A stretch of 64,000 bases of DNA. Origin: an uncultured bacterium (GTDB lineage Bacteria; Bacillota_I; Bacilli_A; RFN20; CAG-826). Made by a program: the position numbers and the translations under genes. The notes beneath the pieces were generated by a model, which ran no database searches, was not told where the DNA came from, and saw only the letters and a list, made by a program, of their open reading frames with translations. Positions within the stretch are counted from its first letter, which is position 1. Every line of letters starts with the position of its first letter. Positions 33,315-59,851 of this stretch are shown in pieces. The stretch is taken from positions 12,574-76,573 of the forward strand of contig CASFSG010000025.1 of assembly GCA_949297305.1 (NCBI GenBank), in the 5' to 3' direction.

Positions 33315-34487
33315 CTAACAAATGAATATTTCATAAAATAACATCTTTTCCTTTAAGTAGGTTTGATAATCCTTTTCAAAATCAAAAGCAATTTTAAGAT
33401 GCGAATTTAAATAAAATAAGGTAAAAAAGAGAAAAAAGAAATTCGTCATCGATAAACTATCAATTAGTATAGATAAGATAATCGCTACGATAAAAATTAA
33501 GAATATCTTTAGATATTTAATAACATTTAAATAATTAATGTAACGATAAGATTTAAAGTGTAAAGATTCAATAAAAGATATCGCCGCTTTCTTTTTCGAT
33601 GAAAATAAATCGTTTTCTAAAAATTCAATATGATGTTGATATTTTTTTAAAGTAGGCGTGATGAATAAATATTCCAAAACGTTTAACAAAAAAATGATAG
33701 CGATACCACTGACATATAAATAATTAAAAATTATTAACGAAATTCCTAGTAAAAGAATAATAAATAATGAGGAAAATAATCTTCGCGGTGTTAAATATAG
33801 TTTGCTTTTATAATTTTGAAACAATCGATAATTATCTTTTGTAATTTTTTTATTTGTTAATAATGATAAATAACGACGATCAAAAGCCTTTAAAGAAGAG
33901 ACAATTATTTGTCCTAAAGTAATTTCTAAAATAGCAAAAAGTGATAAAAAAATAAATGGCAGATAAATGATAGCAAAAGGAAAAGTAATAAAAGAAGCGA
34001 TCAAAGACAAAGTCGCTAGTAATTCACTAAAAATAACTAAAAAGTGATAAATCGGTTTAAGCTTAGGCATTTCTTTAGCAATATATTTTTGTTTATTATA
34101 AGAGGCAACTTCCAATGTTAAAAAAGTAAAGCGAAGAAAAAATTTCTTTTTAGTTAAAAAATATTTACCTTGGTAGGGATCATAGATATGAAATAAGCCG
34201 GCCACCTTCTTTACTAAAACGAGATGAAAATTCTTTGTCCCTTTAAAAGAAGCTAAAAATATTTTCGGTAAATTTTTATATTTGACATTATTTTCATAAC
34301 GATACGCCTTCAATTTTAAACCGTTTGTTTTAGCGATTTGTTCTAGTTCAAAAATTGAATATTGTTGATCGATATATTTACGAGCTAAATATAAATAATT
34401 TGGATTGTGATAAAGATTAGCTAATAGCATTTTTAGACTAGCGAATCCGCAATCGTTATTTCCAGTTTGATAGCAAAAGTATTTCAT
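33315..34487 (-). CDS. C39 (bacteriocin-processing type) cysteine peptidase domain fused to a polytopic membrane domain; no ABC ATPase domain
   Basis: N-terminus YQTGNNDCGFASLKMLLANLY (Gln7/Cys13), NFHLVLVKK (His88) and IYDPYQG (Asp103) form a complete C39 catalytic set. It is followed by about 260 aa with multiple hydrophobic helices and ends with no Walker A/B. Confidence 0.7.
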   Translation of the reverse strand: MKYFCYQTGNNDCGFASLKMLLANLYHNPNYLYLARKYIDQQYSIFELEQIAKTNGLKLKAYRYENNVKYKNLPKIFLASFKGTKNFHLVLVKKVAGLFHIYDPYQGKYFLTKKKFFLRFTFLTLEVASYNKQKYIAKEMPKLKPIYHFLVIFSELLATLSLIASFITFPFAIIYLPFIFLSLFAILEITLGQIIVSSLKAFDRRYLSLLTNKKITKDNYRLFQNYKSKLYLTPRRLFSSLFIILLLGISLIIFNYLYVSGIAIIFLLNVLEYLFITPTLKKYQHHIEFLENDLFSSKKKAAISFIESLHFKSYRYINYLNVIKYLKIFLIFIVAIILSILIDSLSMTNFFFLFFTLFYLNSHLKIAFDFEKDYQTYLKEKMLFYEIFIC

Positions 34488-34608
34488 CGTCTATTTAATA
34501 GGATAAAATTGCTTCTTTGTGTCGTTTTTATTCGAAAATGAGAATAAATGATTATACGTAGTATAATAACTACTATTTTTATACTATAATTCAACTATCG
34601 AATTTTAT

Positions 34609-34637
34609 TTAAAAAGAAAACCCTCGCTCGGAGGGTT
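34609..34637 (-). terminator. rho-independent terminator downstream of rpsU
   Basis: Minus strand: AACCCTC-CGAGC-GAGGGTT hairpin (plus 34619-34637) followed by TTTTCTTTTT. Confidence 0.75.
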
Positions 34638-34656: not shown

Positions 34657-34830
34657 CTAATATGATTTACGACGGGCCATTTCGCTTTTTAATTTACGGC
34701 GAACGCCAGGTTTAAGATAGAATTCTCTTTTACGCGCTTCTTGGAGAGTGCCGGCTTTATTAACGAGACGTTTAAAGCGACGAAGAGCTTCATCTAAAGA
34801 TTCGTTTTCTCTAACAATTGTTTTAGGCAT
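34657..34830 (-). CDS. rpsU: 30S ribosomal protein S21
   Basis: [21 protein letters not shown]...[10 protein letters not shown]. Start moved to ATG 34830, which has AAGGAG 8 nt upstream. Confidence 0.9.
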
Positions 34831-34877
34831 TTTATCATCTCCTTTCCGCAACGAGAATTAATATAAACTATTTAATA

Positions 34878-35831: not shown

Positions 35832-37112
35832 TTAGTATATATCTTCGATTTTATCATATATCACTTCAATAGTTTGACCTATAGAAATGAGGTTAGAAAA
35901 GGGGATAAAAACTTTTAGATATTCTTCGCTATATCCTTCGAAAACTCCAAGCGATTCATGATATCTTTCAATTAAAACCTTAACTTTTCTTTGGTAGAAT
36001 TGTTTCGCGTACTGTCGATGCATCTCCTTAGCTAAAGTTATTAACTGATGAACACGTTTTTTCTTCGTTGCATGAGCGATATTGTCTAGATATAATTTGG
36101 ACGCTACTGTGCCTATACGCTCAGAATAAGGAAAGGGGTGAATTTCACTAAAGGCACATTTTTTAATGAATTGGTAACCATCTAAAAATAGATCGTCATT
36201 TTCATTAGGAAAACCAACCATGATATCAGTTGTAATTGCTGCTAAGGGCCGAACTTGACGAATTTTATTTATAGCGGCAAGATATTCCTCTTGCGTATAA
36301 TGGCGATTCATCATACGCAATATTTCATTTGAACCAGCTTGCAAGGGAAGATGAAAATGTGGCATAACTCTACGATCGGCGATTAACTTCAAAAATAAAT
36401 CATCAATTTGTCTTACTTCAATCGAAGAAATGCGCAAACGAAAATCTTGTGGTAAAACATTTAATATTTCTGCTAATAAATGCGAAAAATTATATTGCAA
36501 ATTGTCGCCATAACGATAGCTAGCCATATCAATGCCCACTAAAACAATTTCGCGATAATTCATTTCGACTAAATACTTTACTTCATTTAAAATATCGTCT
36601 TTATCGCGATAACGCGACTTGCCGCGAGCAAAAGGGATTAAACAATACGAACAAAAAGAATCACAGCCGTCTTCTATTTTTAAAAAAGCACGCGTCCGCT
36701 CGCTATTAAAAAAAGAAGGACAATGTTCATAAGAAAAATAACGAGTATTTTTATCGACTAAATTAACATTTTTCTTTGATAAAAAATAAGAGTTTAATAT
36801 ATCGATAATTTTATACCGATTTGATGTTCCTATGATAATATTAGCCTTACCTTCCGCCATAATGCGTTCGCTATCAATTTGGCTATAACAGCCCATGATA
36901 ACAATGATTGCGTTAGGAAATTTAAAACGCATACGCGAGAGAATTTGCCGTGATTTATGGCTTGATACATGCGTAACTGCGCAGCTATTAATAATTATCA
37001 CATCGGGATTAATTTCGTCGTAAAGATAACCGTTTTTGCTTAAAAGCTGATTAATCACGCTAATTTCATAATAATTAACTTTGCAACCTAAATTATAAAG
37101 ATAATATTTCAT
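35832..37112 (-). CDS. mtaB: radical-SAM methylthiotransferase, MtaB (YqeV)-like
   Basis: N-terminal LGCKVNYYE, radical-SAM CDSFCSYC and a C-terminal TRAM-like region. Position downstream of rsmE matches Bacillus. Confidence 0.75.
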   Translation of the reverse strand: MKYYLYNLGCKVNYYEISVINQLLSKNGYLYDEINPDVIIINSCAVTHVSSHKSRQILSRMRFKFPNAIIVIMGCYSQIDSERIMAEGKANIIIGTSNRYKIIDILNSYFLSKKNVNLVDKNTRYFSYEHCPSFFNSERTRAFLKIEDGCDSFCSYCLIPFARGKSRYRDKDDILNEVKYLVEMNYREIVLVGIDMASYRYGDNLQYNFSHLLAEILNVLPQDFRLRISSIEVRQIDDLFLKLIADRRVMPHFHLPLQAGSNEILRMMNRHYTQEEYLAAINKIRQVRPLAAITTDIMVGFPNENDDLFLDGYQFIKKCAFSEIHPFPYSERIGTVASKLYLDNIAHATKKKRVHQLITLAKEMHRQYAKQFYQRKVKVLIERYHESLGVFEGYSEEYLKVFIPFSNLISIGQTIEVIYDKIEDIY

Positions 37113-37900
37113 AATCGTGCTCTTTTATTCATCTTTTTTAAAAAGCGATATTCCTGATGCTTGATTTTGAAAATCAATCTTTTCGAAATAAAACCATTTT
37201 CAATCAAAGCGTTATAAAATTTTTCGCGATTAGAGGCTAAATAAGCATCGATAACATCCTTTAAACGTTCAAGTATGTGCGCATAATTAGGTTTTTTTAA
37301 ATAGCGATCAAATAAAGCTATTTTCACATCTAATCGTCCTTCATTATTAATAACATATACAGTTTTAAAATCATAATGATAACAAATTAGAACTTTTTCA
37401 TCTTGATATAAAGGGACGAGTTTAGAAAATAGGGAATTATACAAGGAAAAATTATATGTATCAAATAGGTCAATAACCGATGTCGCATAATGATCGATTA
37501 GACGCGAATAAGGGGTTTTTAATAACTTTCCAAAATTCGTAGAATAGATTAAATTAATCGAACGAGAGAAGATGGGAACATAAATTTTATTATTGCCCTC
37601 TAGTAGATAGGGTAAATTAATCATCTTTTCTTTGATATAATCGTTTGCTTCTTTCGAATTGAAAGATGATTGTTGATATGCGTAAATCACCGCTTCTTCA
37701 ATTTTCTTTTTGTTTAATATAGATCGGAGAATTATATTGGCCCTAATTAGCATAAATTCATCGTCAATATCATAATAAAACAAGCGATACATCGGAATAT
37801 TTAAAAACATATATCGATATTCATTATAAAAAAAATATTCTTCGTGATGGCGGAGATTTTTCTTTACCTGATACTTTTCTAATGTCTTAAATAAATTCAT
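37109..37900 (-). CDS. hypothetical protein (263 aa, Tyr/Phe/Asn-rich, no motif recognised)
   Basis: The ORF overlaps the rsmE stop by 1 nt and the mtaB start by 4 nt, so it is probably translationally coupled. No family recognised by eye. Confidence 0.5.
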   Translation of the reverse strand: MNLFKTLEKYQVKKNLRHHEEYFFYNEYRYMFLNIPMYRLFYYDIDDEFMLIRANIILRSILNKKKIEEAVIYAYQQSSFNSKEANDYIKEKMINLPYLLEGNNKIYVPIFSRSINLIYSTNFGKLLKTPYSRLIDHYATSVIDLFDTYNFSLYNSLFSKLVPLYQDEKVLICYHYDFKTVYVINNEGRLDVKIALFDRYLKKPNYAHILERLKDVIDAYLASNREKFYNALIENGFISKRLIFKIKHQEYRFLKKMNKRARL

Positions 37901-57288: not shown

Positions 57289-59304
57289 TCAAAAAAACCC
57301 AATATAGGTAATTGTCCCTTCTAAGTCCGTACGACGAATTTTAATATTTTGAGCATTTAAAATCTCGATAACTTCTTGATGAGGATGACCATAATAATTA
57401 TTTGCCCCAACAGAAATAATCGCTTCAAGCGGACTCACTTGTCGAATGAATTCTTCGCTTGTAGAGGTATTGCTCCCATGATGACCGACTTTTAAAATGT
57501 CGCAATCTAAGGATGGGTGATCAATGATTATTTTTTCTTCAATTTTCTTACTTGCGTCCCCCATTAACAAAAATTTATAGTTAATAAATTCAAAATAAAG
57601 AACTAATGAATTATCATTTTCATCCTCGTTGCCTTGATAAATATTTAAGTTTTCAATATAAAAACCACCATGTTTCAACGGGAAGGAATCACTACTAAAT
57701 AAATAGTTTTTCACTGTAAAATTTCTCCTGAGATTATCTAACGCCCCATTATGATCAAAATCGTTATGGGTAGTAATAACAAAATCAAGTTTATTTATTT
57801 GCTTTTTTCTAAAAAAGGGAATGAGAGTCTCTTTTGCAATATCGTTATAAAGCGAACCACCTGTATCAATTAAGATGGTTTTTCCGTTATCATTAAGTAA
57901 AATAGCGTCACCCTGACCAACATTAATAAAATAAACGCCATTATATAAATAAGATCGGATGGGAATCGCATTAATTAATAAAATAATAATTGTTGAAAGA
58001 GAAAATATTTTAAAATGTCTTTTCATTCTTGCTTCTAAGGCAAAAAGGGTAAGAAATATTAAAAAATAATATATCAAAAGAAAGAATGATGTCAATTCGC
58101 CAAGATAAATGCGAATATCAATTCGTGCAAAAAAACAAATTACTTGATATAAAAAATTACCATAACCATTCAAAATATTTATAAAAGGATAAAAATAAAA
58201 AGAAATTAAAGAAATTATGACAAAGGGCGAGTTTAAAGGAACGATGATAAATTGATAAAATAAAGAAAATAAATGAATAGAACCATCGAAAGAAAGCGAA
58301 AAAGGTAATACCGCTAGATAGATAATGACAGGAACGCTGATTTTTTGAAATAGTTTTCTCCTTTTATACATCGTTTTATTGATAAATGACATCATAAAAG
58401 AGATTAAAAAACCAACATAAAAAGAACTTTGATAAATTAGATGATAATCAAATAGTAAAAAGATGAAGGCAGTAATCGAAAGCATCGTTAAACGCGATAT
58501 TTTTTTCTTAAAGAAAAATTCATTAGATATTTTAAAAATTTCTAAAAAGAGAACCCGCATAATCGACGGCCGATAAAACGAGATTAAAAAATAAGGTGAA
58601 AAAATAATTAAAGGCACAATCATTGATACTTTCTTAGAAAATTTTAAACCAACAAGGTAAGTGAGTAGATGCATCATTATATGAAGATAAATGCCATTTA
58701 CCGCAAATAGATAGATAATGTTTAAATCGCTAGTTAATTGAATAAATGAAGAATCATAGTCTTTATTAAAAAATAAAAAAGCGTCGATAATGGCGCTGGC
58801 GTTATCATTGAAATTAGCTAAAAATTCATTTTTTCTTGCCTTAAAACGCAAAGGGTTCATCCAAATAGTTTCAATATTGCGACTATTTAATTGACGATAA
58901 ACGCCTTTGTTTGATAAATACTCTTTAAAATTAAATTGACTTTCGTATGTTGTAAATTTGATTTCTTCTACAAAACCTTCAATCTTTAAATAATCGCCGA
59001 CTTCATAAGTGTGATCTTTTAAATAAAGATAAAATCTTTCTCCTTTAGATAAAAAAAGGACATAATTATTCTTGCTTTCGATAACTATGCCTTGATAAAT
59101 TCCGTTGTTAGGATTATTAGTGAACTTAATTAAACTAACTAAAAATCCTAAAATCATCGTTAAAAGAATATAGATGAAGACCTTTCTTCCTTTTCGCAAA
59201 TAAATATAAATTAAGTATCCAATACTTATAATTATAAATATCGGAATTTTATGTAAAACTAATAACCCTAACGCAAAAGCGAAAAGGAAGAAAAAGATCA
59301 TCAT
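57289..59304 (-). CDS. comEC: DNA internalisation competence protein ComEC/Rec2
   Basis: N-terminal TM/OB region, a polytopic competence domain and a C-terminal metallo-beta-lactamase domain (INVGQGDAILL, TTHNDFDHNG, VGHHGS). Confidence 0.85.
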   Translation of the reverse strand: MMIFFFLFAFALGLLVLHKIPIFIIISIGYLIYIYLRKGRKVFIYILLTMILGFLVSLIKFTNNPNNGIYQGIVIESKNNYVLFLSKGERFYLYLKDHTYEVGDYLKIEGFVEEIKFTTYESQFNFKEYLSNKGVYRQLNSRNIETIWMNPLRFKARKNEFLANFNDNASAIIDAFLFFNKDYDSSFIQLTSDLNIIYLFAVNGIYLHIMMHLLTYLVGLKFSKKVSMIVPLIIFSPYFLISFYRPSIMRVLFLEIFKISNEFFFKKKISRLTMLSITAFIFLLFDYHLIYQSSFYVGFLISFMMSFINKTMYKRRKLFQKISVPVIIYLAVLPFSLSFDGSIHLFSLFYQFIIVPLNSPFVIISLISFYFYPFINILNGYGNFLYQVICFFARIDIRIYLGELTSFFLLIYYFLIFLTLFALEARMKRHFKIFSLSTIIILLINAIPIRSYLYNGVYFINVGQGDAILLNDNGKTILIDTGGSLYNDIAKETLIPFFRKKQINKLDFVITTHNDFDHNGALDNLRRNFTVKNYLFSSDSFPLKHGGFYIENLNIYQGNEDENDNSLVLYFEFINYKFLLMGDASKKIEEKIIIDHPSLDCDILKVGHHGSNTSTSEEFIRQVSPLEAIISVGANNYYGHPHQEVIEILNAQNIKIRRTDLEGTITYIGFF

Positions 59305-59308
59305 CTTG

Positions 59309-59851
59309 TTAAGACGACCTTAGGACAATATAATTTTTAATTTTTTCAAAGGTTGCATTGCCGATACCTGAGACATTTTTAATGTCTTCAATTCGTCCAA
59401 ATTGACCGTTTTCATCGCGATAAGAGATAATCGATGTGGCAATAGCATTTCCGACGCCATTAATTTCCATCAATTCATCTTCGCTTGCCTCGTTGATGTT
59501 AACTTTCGCAATCGGTTCATATTCGCACACATCATTCATGTCATATTTAGGGGCGATATAAAACGATAAACCATCTTGCAAAACATAACTCGTATCATAA
59601 GCGAGTTCATCGGCATTACTTGTAACGCCGCTAGCAAGCTCAATAAGCATTTCTAAAGTAGAATTCGGATCGAGAACATAGGTCCCAGCCCGAGTTATTT
59701 CACCGGAAATAGAAACGCTCAACGATGTTAATGATGCGGTATTCTCACTGACAATATTGCCGACAACATTTCCAAAATTAGGATCAACAAATTGGAAGAC
59801 AACAATCAAGACAACAACGCTAACCAAGACTCCAATAAATACTTTGACCAT
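59309..59851 (-). CDS. comEA: competence protein ComEA (DNA receptor)
   Basis: N-terminal TM anchor, an SLBB-like region and C-terminal tandem helix-hairpin-helix INEASEDELMEINGVGNAIA...IKNVSGIGNATFEKIK. Confidence 0.85.
   Translation of the reverse strand: MVKVFIGVLVSVVVLIVVFQFVDPNFGNVVGNIVSENTASLTSLSVSISGEITRAGTYVLDPNSTLEMLIELASGVTSNADELAYDTSYVLQDGLSFYIAPKYDMNDVCEYEPIAKVNINEASEDELMEINGVGNAIATSIISYRDENGQFGRIEDIKNVSGIGNATFEKIKNYIVLRSS

Follow-up and report, generated by a model that had tools for sequence, protein, structure and literature searches.

A PCAT-derived C39 peptidase protein without an ATPase domain, conserved upstream of ybeY in uncultured gut and rumen Bacilli

The textbook example of peptides being cut and exported with the energy of ATP is the peptidase-containing ATP-binding cassette (ABC) transporter (PCAT). 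PCAT1 of Clostridium (Acetivibrio) thermocellum, ComA, LagD, LahT and SunT begin with a cytoplasmic C39 peptidase domain carrying the residues Gln, Cys, His and Asp and continue with a six-helix exporter domain; in ABC exporters generally, coupling helices make the contact with the ATPase domain. Here we describe a gene (P0001; 33315..34487, minus strand; ATG start, from open reading frame (ORF) call and translation) whose 390-aa product is like these transporters in its predicted cytoplasmic C39 domain, the four residues and the six helices that follow. It lies in a 64,000-nt stretch of DNA from an uncultured bacterium of the Bacilli_A (GCA_949297305.1, contig CASFSG010000025.1, positions 12,574 to 76,573), which we call the window and by which all unmarked coordinates are numbered. 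Unlike PCATs of the PCAT1 type, the protein has no ATPase, appears from alignment to have had its coupling helices deleted, and has a membrane domain about 65-70 residues shorter. Unlike PCATs of bacteriocin and pheromone clusters, it is the product of a single-copy core gene in a housekeeping operon, with no adjacent double-glycine substrate, accessory or immunity gene found. The components are known, their combination is not: a natural PCAT derivative without ATPase or coupling helices, kept as a conserved core gene. Such a conserved, ATPase-free version asks whether the fold works without ATP.

Among proteins of this fold, only SbmA/BacA and engineered truncations are so far known to work without ATP. 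SbmA, whose membrane domain is of the ABC-exporter type and which has no ATPase, transports peptides by means of the proton gradient (PMC8442886, PMC13316013), and in MsbA stripped of its ATPase pH-gradient-dependent transport persists (PMC4979069). Because both proteins transport, the ABC-exporter fold can work without ATP. The present family is like SbmA/BacA (SLiPT) and the engineered MsbA in having a membrane domain of this type and no ATPase; SbmA differs in that it carries no peptidase, is an importer and has no detectable sequence relation to the family. The C39-like domains (CLDs) of type 1 secretion ABC transporters such as HlyB offer another comparison, having the same papain-like C39 fold N-terminal to an exporter-type membrane domain. 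CLDs are without the catalytic Cys and do not cleave, whereas Cys13 is 100% conserved in the present family, and HlyB has an ATPase domain where the protein described here has none.

The closest proteins in our tree are the Mbov_0121 family (NF045998) transporters of mycoplasmas, which occupy the same slot directly upstream of ybeY(-cdd)-era. In both families an intact C39 domain occurs without a double-glycine peptide in the genome (PMC6609329). The Mbov_0121 family proteins differ in being about 670-690 aa long and in having, in most cases, Walker A and Walker B motifs. By criteria that are ours and not NCBI's, the position upstream of ybeY and common descent, the NF045998 transporters and the present family belong together. 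We equate Mycoplasma genitalium MG_390 'sunT' and JCVI-syn3A 0401 with this ybeY-linked NF045998 type by annotation. MG_390 is annotated as a C39 'sunT' ABC transporter and is co-transcribed with MG_389 from a sigma-20 (MG428) promoter, in a recombination and gene-transfer regulon with recA, ruvAB and other recombination genes; it is non-essential, and its deletion lowered transformation by homologous recombination tenfold and left DNA entry unaffected (PMC4446450, PMC6105099). JCVI-syn3A keeps its C39 transporter 0401 without any double-glycine peptide, as do other mycoplasmas, and a transamidase role has been speculated upon (PMC6609329).

The peptidase domain of the protein (residues 1-130; 34098..34487, minus strand) is of the double-glycine type and contains its single Pfam domain, PF03412 Peptidase_C39 (residues 4-129, E 5.9e-15, 55.7 bits against a gathering cut-off of 22). 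An earlier note on this DNA, made from the sequence, had read a full C39 catalytic signature here, and the four residues are in the places it gave: Gln7 (34467-34469), Cys13 (34449-34451), His88 (34224-34226) and Asp103 (34179-34181; all minus strand, by codon check). In MEROPS family C39 the Cys and His are catalytic, the Gln belongs to the oxyanion hole and the Asp is the orienting residue. Across 150 family representatives the four residues are conserved at 97%, 100%, 99% and 99% respectively, so the loss of catalytic residues that the note had reckoned with did not appear, and they align with the same residues in every full-length PCAT compared. PCAT1, LahT150 and ComA are the best matches of a family sequence profile, with E 5.5e-12 for the LahT150 peptidase (6mpz) and with a match to PCAT1 that covers peptidase and first helix. 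A Lys-rich linker, KQKYIAKEMPKLKP (residues 131-147; 34047..34097, minus strand), without secondary structure in the model, leads to the membrane domain. Because this linker is positive-inside and the number of helices is even, we infer that the peptidase lies in the cytoplasm.

For the remainder of the protein (33321..34046, minus strand) we relied on an AlphaFold2 model built from nine family members (mean pLDDT 79.6), on Foldseek against the PDB and on alignment with relatives. The model has six long helices between residues 148 and 389 (148-168, 175-211, 217-254, 258-296, 303-341 and 347-389), bearing out the polytopic membrane domain that had been predicted, and the fold search answers the question, raised at the same time, of a type I exporter fold, with PCAT1 as top match (8vp5, 6v9z, 7t55 and 4ry2; E about 1e-10, query TM-score about 0.6). 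The next matches are HlyB and, as isolated peptidase domains, LahT and ComA. The membrane part alone matches BmrA, TAP, McjD, MsbA, CydDC and the ATPase-less SbmA (9g3d), the last of these weakly (E 7e-3, TM-score 0.38); with this weak fold match and no sequence-family match, the family is not placed among the SbmA/BacA (SLiPT) transporters. By fold, then, a six-helix type-I/IV exporter domain follows the peptidase, despite its shortening and despite the absence of a PF00664 (ABC_membrane) match.

What is missing is equally well defined. Pfam found no PF00005 (ABC_tran) match in the 390-aa protein, and Walker A, Walker B and signature motif are all absent from its end, as the earlier note had said. 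The C-terminus aligns exactly at the junction of membrane domain and ATPase, at residue about 450-465 of full-length relatives; the ORF thus ends where their ATPase starts. Within the aligned region the family is about 64 residues shorter than full-length relatives. About 8 aa are missing ahead of helix 1, about 14 from the stretch joining helices 1 and 2, and about 6 from that joining helices 5 and 6; every ATPase-less member has in addition lost about 12-14 aa in the first intracellular loop and about 19 in the second. Judged from the alignment, both intracellular-loop deletions remove the predicted coupling-helix segments, which leaves neither loop with a recognisable coupling helix. Against the NCBIfam model NF045998 the protein scores 39.8 bits over model positions 2-237 of 673 and misses the full-length equivalog cut-off of 500 bits. 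The correct label should be PCAT-derived and not PCAT, because ATPase, coupling helices and cognate substrate are all missing and the NF045998 score is far below the cut-off.

The membrane part that is left is nevertheless under constraint equal to that of the peptidase. In the same 150 representatives Asp203 (codon 33879-33881), Lys227 (33807-33809) and Glu291 (33615-33617; all minus strand) are conserved at 96%, 97% and 96%, and position 254, which is Phe in the window's protein, is Asn in 91%. Asp203 and Lys227 are inherited from ordinary PCATs, whereas Glu291, Asn254 and a frequent Glu188 are specific to the ATPase-less family. Because of this constraint and these family-specific polar residues, the six-helix domain may well do more than anchor the peptidase.

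The gene is neither a local truncation nor a pseudogene: loss of the ATPase is old, fixed and defines a large family. An exhaustive search of 1.84 billion representative proteins, clustered at 50% identity, returned 388 matches. Of these, 258 had E<1e-10, and the 150 best listed are almost all 385-420 aa long and align end to end. The source genome (1.22 Mb in 93 contigs, about 94% complete) has exactly one C39 domain. Of 60 relatives sampled for distribution, 36 belong to the same taxonomic family, and 33 of these 36 carry the gene in single copy, while two of the three genomes without it are only 54-66% complete; in the same order it is present in families f3 and f7 and absent in f2, f4 and f8. 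Named carriers, from gut and rumen, include uncultured 'Bacilli', 'Candidatus Onthovivens', 'Candidatus Fiminaster', 'Firmicutes bacterium CAG:449' and misnamed 'Coprobacillus' metagenome-assembled genomes (MAGs). We take these carriers to be an RF39-like lineage, going by the names of the MAGs and by GTDB nomenclature. For pairs 57-80% identical, the ratio of non-synonymous to synonymous substitution rates (dN/dS) is 0.09-0.28, alike in the C39 and membrane domains; dS is near saturation in these pairs, which makes the values rough although clearly below 1. The databases name family members only 'cysteine peptidase family C39 domain-containing protein', and a literature search found no published description of the family.

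Position is the other constant. In all 45 fetched loci that reach far enough, ybeY lies downstream on the same strand, mostly as the next gene and followed by cdd-era-recO-glyS, while upstream one large subgroup has rpsU and another has dnaK-dnaJ. The earlier note found the setting in a housekeeping operon unusual; it is rather the defining, inherited feature of the family. An NF045998 profile search over 200 genomes of the same class gave full-length matches (about 670-690 aa) in code-4 mollicutes (families f28 and f18) and in almost every small table-11 genome of family f14, and also, in genomes of larger size, ordinary PCATs. Nine mollicute loci and one table-11 locus have the full-length transporter immediately before ybeY(-cdd)-era, and in f13 and f14 it adjoins rpsU. 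Full-length homologues, which the note had advised looking for in relatives, were therefore met with in distant lineages (mollicutes and family f14) and not in close relatives. A maximum-likelihood tree on the peptidase-plus-membrane region gathers the ATPase-less proteins in a single clade (Shimodaira-Hasegawa-like approximate likelihood ratio test (SH-aLRT) 100), which joins the ybeY-linked transporters (SH-aLRT 97) in a group nested among the rpsU-linked ones and separate from ordinary PCATs (96). Tree and synteny together argue for shared descent with the ybeY-linked full-length C39 ABC transporters, and indicate that the ATPase domain and both coupling helices would have been lost once, in the RF39-like clade.

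Some features of the full-length mollicute loci deserve mention alongside. Between transporter and ybeY, five code-4 mollicute loci (L048, L051, L059, L062 and L064) encode a further protein, about 104-125 aa long and with a single membrane helix at its N-terminus. Its start is 1-8 nt before the transporter stop in L048, L059, L062 and L064 and 46 nt after it in L051, and in several mollicutes it is, at 120-125 aa, translationally coupled to the transporter; its position is that of MG_389, and it has no counterpart in the ATPase-less family. Most of the ybeY-linked mollicute transporters in loci L048-L064 keep Walker A and Walker B, and many are without an LSGGQ-type signature by a simple pattern. 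This hints that their ATP sites may be degenerate, though the regular expression used may be too strict.

The reading that we put forward, and to which we give about an even chance, sees the protein as a membrane-bound leader peptidase that needs no ATP and also plays the part of a conduit. It would be a functional PCAT descendant that has lost its ATPase domain, arising from a C39 lineage that, in mollicutes and in their Bacilli relatives with small genomes, came to have a fixed place beside ybeY or rpsU. Within the RF39-like clade, a one-time deletion of the ATPase and both coupling helices would have produced the 390-aa protein, which would then have stayed under purifying selection as a single-copy core gene heading a ybeY-cdd-era unit. 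Seated in the membrane with the C39 domain in the cytoplasm, and probably homodimeric as its relatives are, it would cleave a double-glycine-type leader (after Gly-Gly, Gly-Ala or Gly-Ser) without ATP, on one or a few conserved cellular peptides or proteins. The six-helix domain would most likely serve as docking site and ATP-independent conduit, passive or proton-coupled, comparable to SbmA and to the engineered MsbA without ATPase; proton coupling in the ATPase-less family is conjecture, drawn by analogy with these proteins. Of the suggestions in the earlier note, a truncated PCAT kept as a leader peptidase thus holds as to descent and probably as to activity. It does not hold as to a local truncation, there being no ATPase remnant downstream, where ybeY begins 51 nt after the stop. 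The note's option of a repurposed protease still stands.

Several points weigh against a leader peptidase with a conduit. One is the want of a substrate. Four motif scans of all small ORFs in the genome, covering a strict leader, a G[GAS] site with a membrane helix after it, and loose patterns in which Cys-Gly was allowed, gave nothing credible for a double-glycine-type leader, and no double-glycine peptide gene adjoins the C39 gene in any of the 45 loci; a cognate substrate gene was thus found neither near the gene, as the earlier note had already reported, nor by scanning the whole genome. With no Pfam ABC_membrane match and about 65-70 residues lost, the translocation path may be gone. The Gln/Cys/His/Asp tetrad can serve other acyl-transfer chemistry, and the link to recombination comes from one species and from a full-length protein only. 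ComEC is undetectable in 4 of 12 genomes of the family that keep the C39 gene. It also should be considered that the tree program warns of long, compositionally odd AT-rich branches, so that the sister relation leans partly on synteny. As to the candidates that the motif scans did raise, they were discarded as inner parts of known genes (the RnfE C-terminus, YneF, SecE and the ATP synthase c subunit) or noise. The inserted neighbours of variant loci L002, L030, L038 and L041 were likewise set aside as substrates, being only lipoproteins, an amylase and regulators.

Whether anything crosses the membrane is the question on which the nearest alternative turns. The protein may be a membrane-anchored protease only, its six helices being an anchor, a dimerisation module or a platform for recognising substrates such as membrane proteins, with nothing translocated and the product staying in the cell or membrane. 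We regard this as possible if rather doubtful. The shortening of the helices and of both intracellular loops would fit it, as would the lack of an exported-peptide gene in the genome scans, the housekeeping character of a core gene in a fixed position, and the ribosome-binding site that in relatives sits in a hairpin, suggesting the low, controlled expression typical of a processing enzyme. Yet one helix would be enough for an anchor and all six have been kept, with dN/dS as low as in the peptidase; the family-specific polar residues Glu291 and Asn254 are conserved, and the arrangement of peptidase on membrane domain is still that of PCAT1. An importing role was raised for the mycoplasma homologue because no double-glycine peptide occurs there (PMC6609329): the C39 fold would carry out non-proteolytic acyl transfer, for example lipoyl transamidation after uptake of lipoyl peptides, with the membrane domain as importer. 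SbmA, the ATPase-less relative of the fold, is indeed an importer (PMC8442886), but the proposal in PMC6609329 is pure speculation, and the full Gln/Cys/His/Asp set together with the sequence match to LahT150, PCAT1 and ComA fits a peptidase, so that we consider it improbable.

The remaining two explanations concern the missing ATPase itself. The protein could be one half of a split ABC transporter whose ATPase subunit is encoded elsewhere in the genome, as the earlier note had also proposed. There are many ABC ATPase genes to choose from, with 30 Pfam matches in the genome, and there are five ordinary fused exporters and a 467-aa ATPase ORF at a contig end (C33) whose partner is out of sight in a genome about 94% complete. 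None of the 30 is on the C39 gene's contig; no ABC ATPase was found on the whole 81-kb contig, in agreement with the note, and none is linked to the gene in any of the 45 loci. Apart from the ORF on C33, each stand-alone ATPase gene adjoins its own permease or is SufC. Because the coupling helices are deleted family-wide and no orphan ATPase gene was found, a partner elsewhere is very improbable. Finally, a missing ATPase and the lack of a substrate are what one would expect of a relic in a single genome, be it a decaying remnant of a bacteriocin exporter, a pseudogene, or an artefact of assembly or gene calling. Here hundreds of intact homologues of the same length, a single-copy and near-universal presence in the taxonomic family, invariant catalytic residues, dN/dS well below 1, and identical or near-identical proteins on independent contigs of several sources leave this next to no chance; truncation and pseudogene are ruled out by homologue lengths, family distribution, residue conservation and dN/dS.

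A broader idea is that the old ybeY/rpsU-linked C39 lineage serves a conserved cellular process instead of bacteriocin export, maybe recombination or gene transfer as for MG_390, and that the version in the RF39-like clade is a natural ATP-independent peptidase-translocator; we give it a low likelihood. If true, an ABC exporter would have turned into a secondary or facilitative transporter for a second time, independently of SbmA/BacA, and for the first time together with a processing enzyme; the identity of the substrate would also explain what the orphan C39 transporter in the minimal cell JCVI-syn3A does. In abundant uncultured gut and rumen bacteria the family is a core gene, and it is the closest relative of the C39 transporter kept by mycoplasmas and JCVI-syn3A, and its small single-polypeptide version could ease work on the orphan C39 transporters of mollicutes. 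Its practical value is modest until a substrate is found.

Turning to the immediate surroundings, ybeY lies downstream of the C39 gene (32808..33263, minus strand; PF02130, E 4e-43) and is followed by cdd, era and recO. The gap from the C39 stop to ybeY is 51 nt, and a scan of this gap found no terminator; because of this, the C39 gene probably heads a ybeY-cdd-era-recO unit and does not sit alone as the earlier note had it. Upstream, the rpsU intrinsic terminator that the note described is real (34619..34637, minus strand; a 7-pair stem and then a T-run, by terminator scan). A promoter region of the gene's own, also claimed there, is partly borne out: a TATAAT read from the sequence at 34551..34556 (minus strand), without a good -35, is its likely -10 and is conserved as TGTATAAT in the congener loci L008/L020, while a scan for consensus sigma-70 promoters called none for the C39 gene, this TATAAT included. 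A search of the genome with the region upstream of the C39 gene found no second copy. The rpsU ORF as mechanically called (34657-34851, minus strand) has a TTG start and 64 aa; an ATG at 34830 gives a 57-aa S21 (MPKTIV...) as in relatives and is probably the true start.

In the 45 nt before the C39 gene start in related loci (L002-L046), a hairpin is predicted in which the Shine-Dalgarno sequence is paired with an upstream CCUCC-type stretch. This applies to 23 of the 27 distinct loci that bear a Shine-Dalgarno sequence, with stems that covary (CCCCC/GGGGG, CCUCC/GGAGG and CCCUC/GAGGG), as against 24% of 84 other Shine-Dalgarno genes in the same loci (Fisher p = 2e-8). The pairing suggests that the family may be subject to translational throttling or control. 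A TATAA-like -10 is often inside the hairpin loop, so that the left arm may lie outside the transcript. In the window's own genus neither a Shine-Dalgarno sequence nor a hairpin precedes the C39 gene (34488-34535).

A 14-mer, TTTTCGAATAAAAA (34529-34536, minus strand), lies 49 nt before the C39 ATG and also 61 nt before a ComFA-like helicase gene (G000 C27:7221, minus strand). It holds a near match to the consensus of the streptococcal ComX box, TACGAATA. The sharing is probably chance: the second copy overlaps the stop of the gene preceding comFA, and the sequence is unconserved upstream of the C39 gene in L008 and L011. Other competence genes are at hand in the window, where comEA (SLBB and HHH_3) and comEC (a 676-aa open frame) occupy 57289-59851 (minus strand), 24 kb from the C39 gene on the same strand and directly after valS with a 57-nt spacer. 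The 24-kb spacing recurs in congeners G001 and G002. The regions upstream of comEA and of the C39 gene bear only a vague resemblance to each other.

A Tad-like locus lies outside the window (G000 contig C15:1660-6283, minus strand). It encodes a T2SSE ATPase (PF00437, E 1e-20), a pair of polytopic proteins that match no Pfam family, and a 52-aa Flp-like pilin starting MSEIKGQLLG, which is without a Gly-Gly site. No A24 prepilin peptidase was found in the source genome. The C39 protein as a stand-in for it was ruled out on the phyletic pattern: A24 peptidase is rare throughout the order whether or not the C39 gene is present, and the Tad-like ATPase is missing from f3 and f7 although they carry the C39 gene, and occurs in f4 and f8 although these lack it.

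Of the assembly itself, it may be noted that several short contigs of G000 nearly duplicate longer ones with few substitutions (C78/C1, C46/C21, C49/C7, C81/C64, C48/C25 and C42/C18), suggesting a mixture of strains; the contamination estimate is 3.6%. A PADLOC search for anti-phage defence gave no match. Elsewhere in the window, a 263-aa ORF without Pfam domains (37109-37900, minus strand) lies between rsmE and an mtaB-like radical-SAM gene, and its position is conserved in most related loci (L004-L047), marking it as a real lineage-wide unknown gene.

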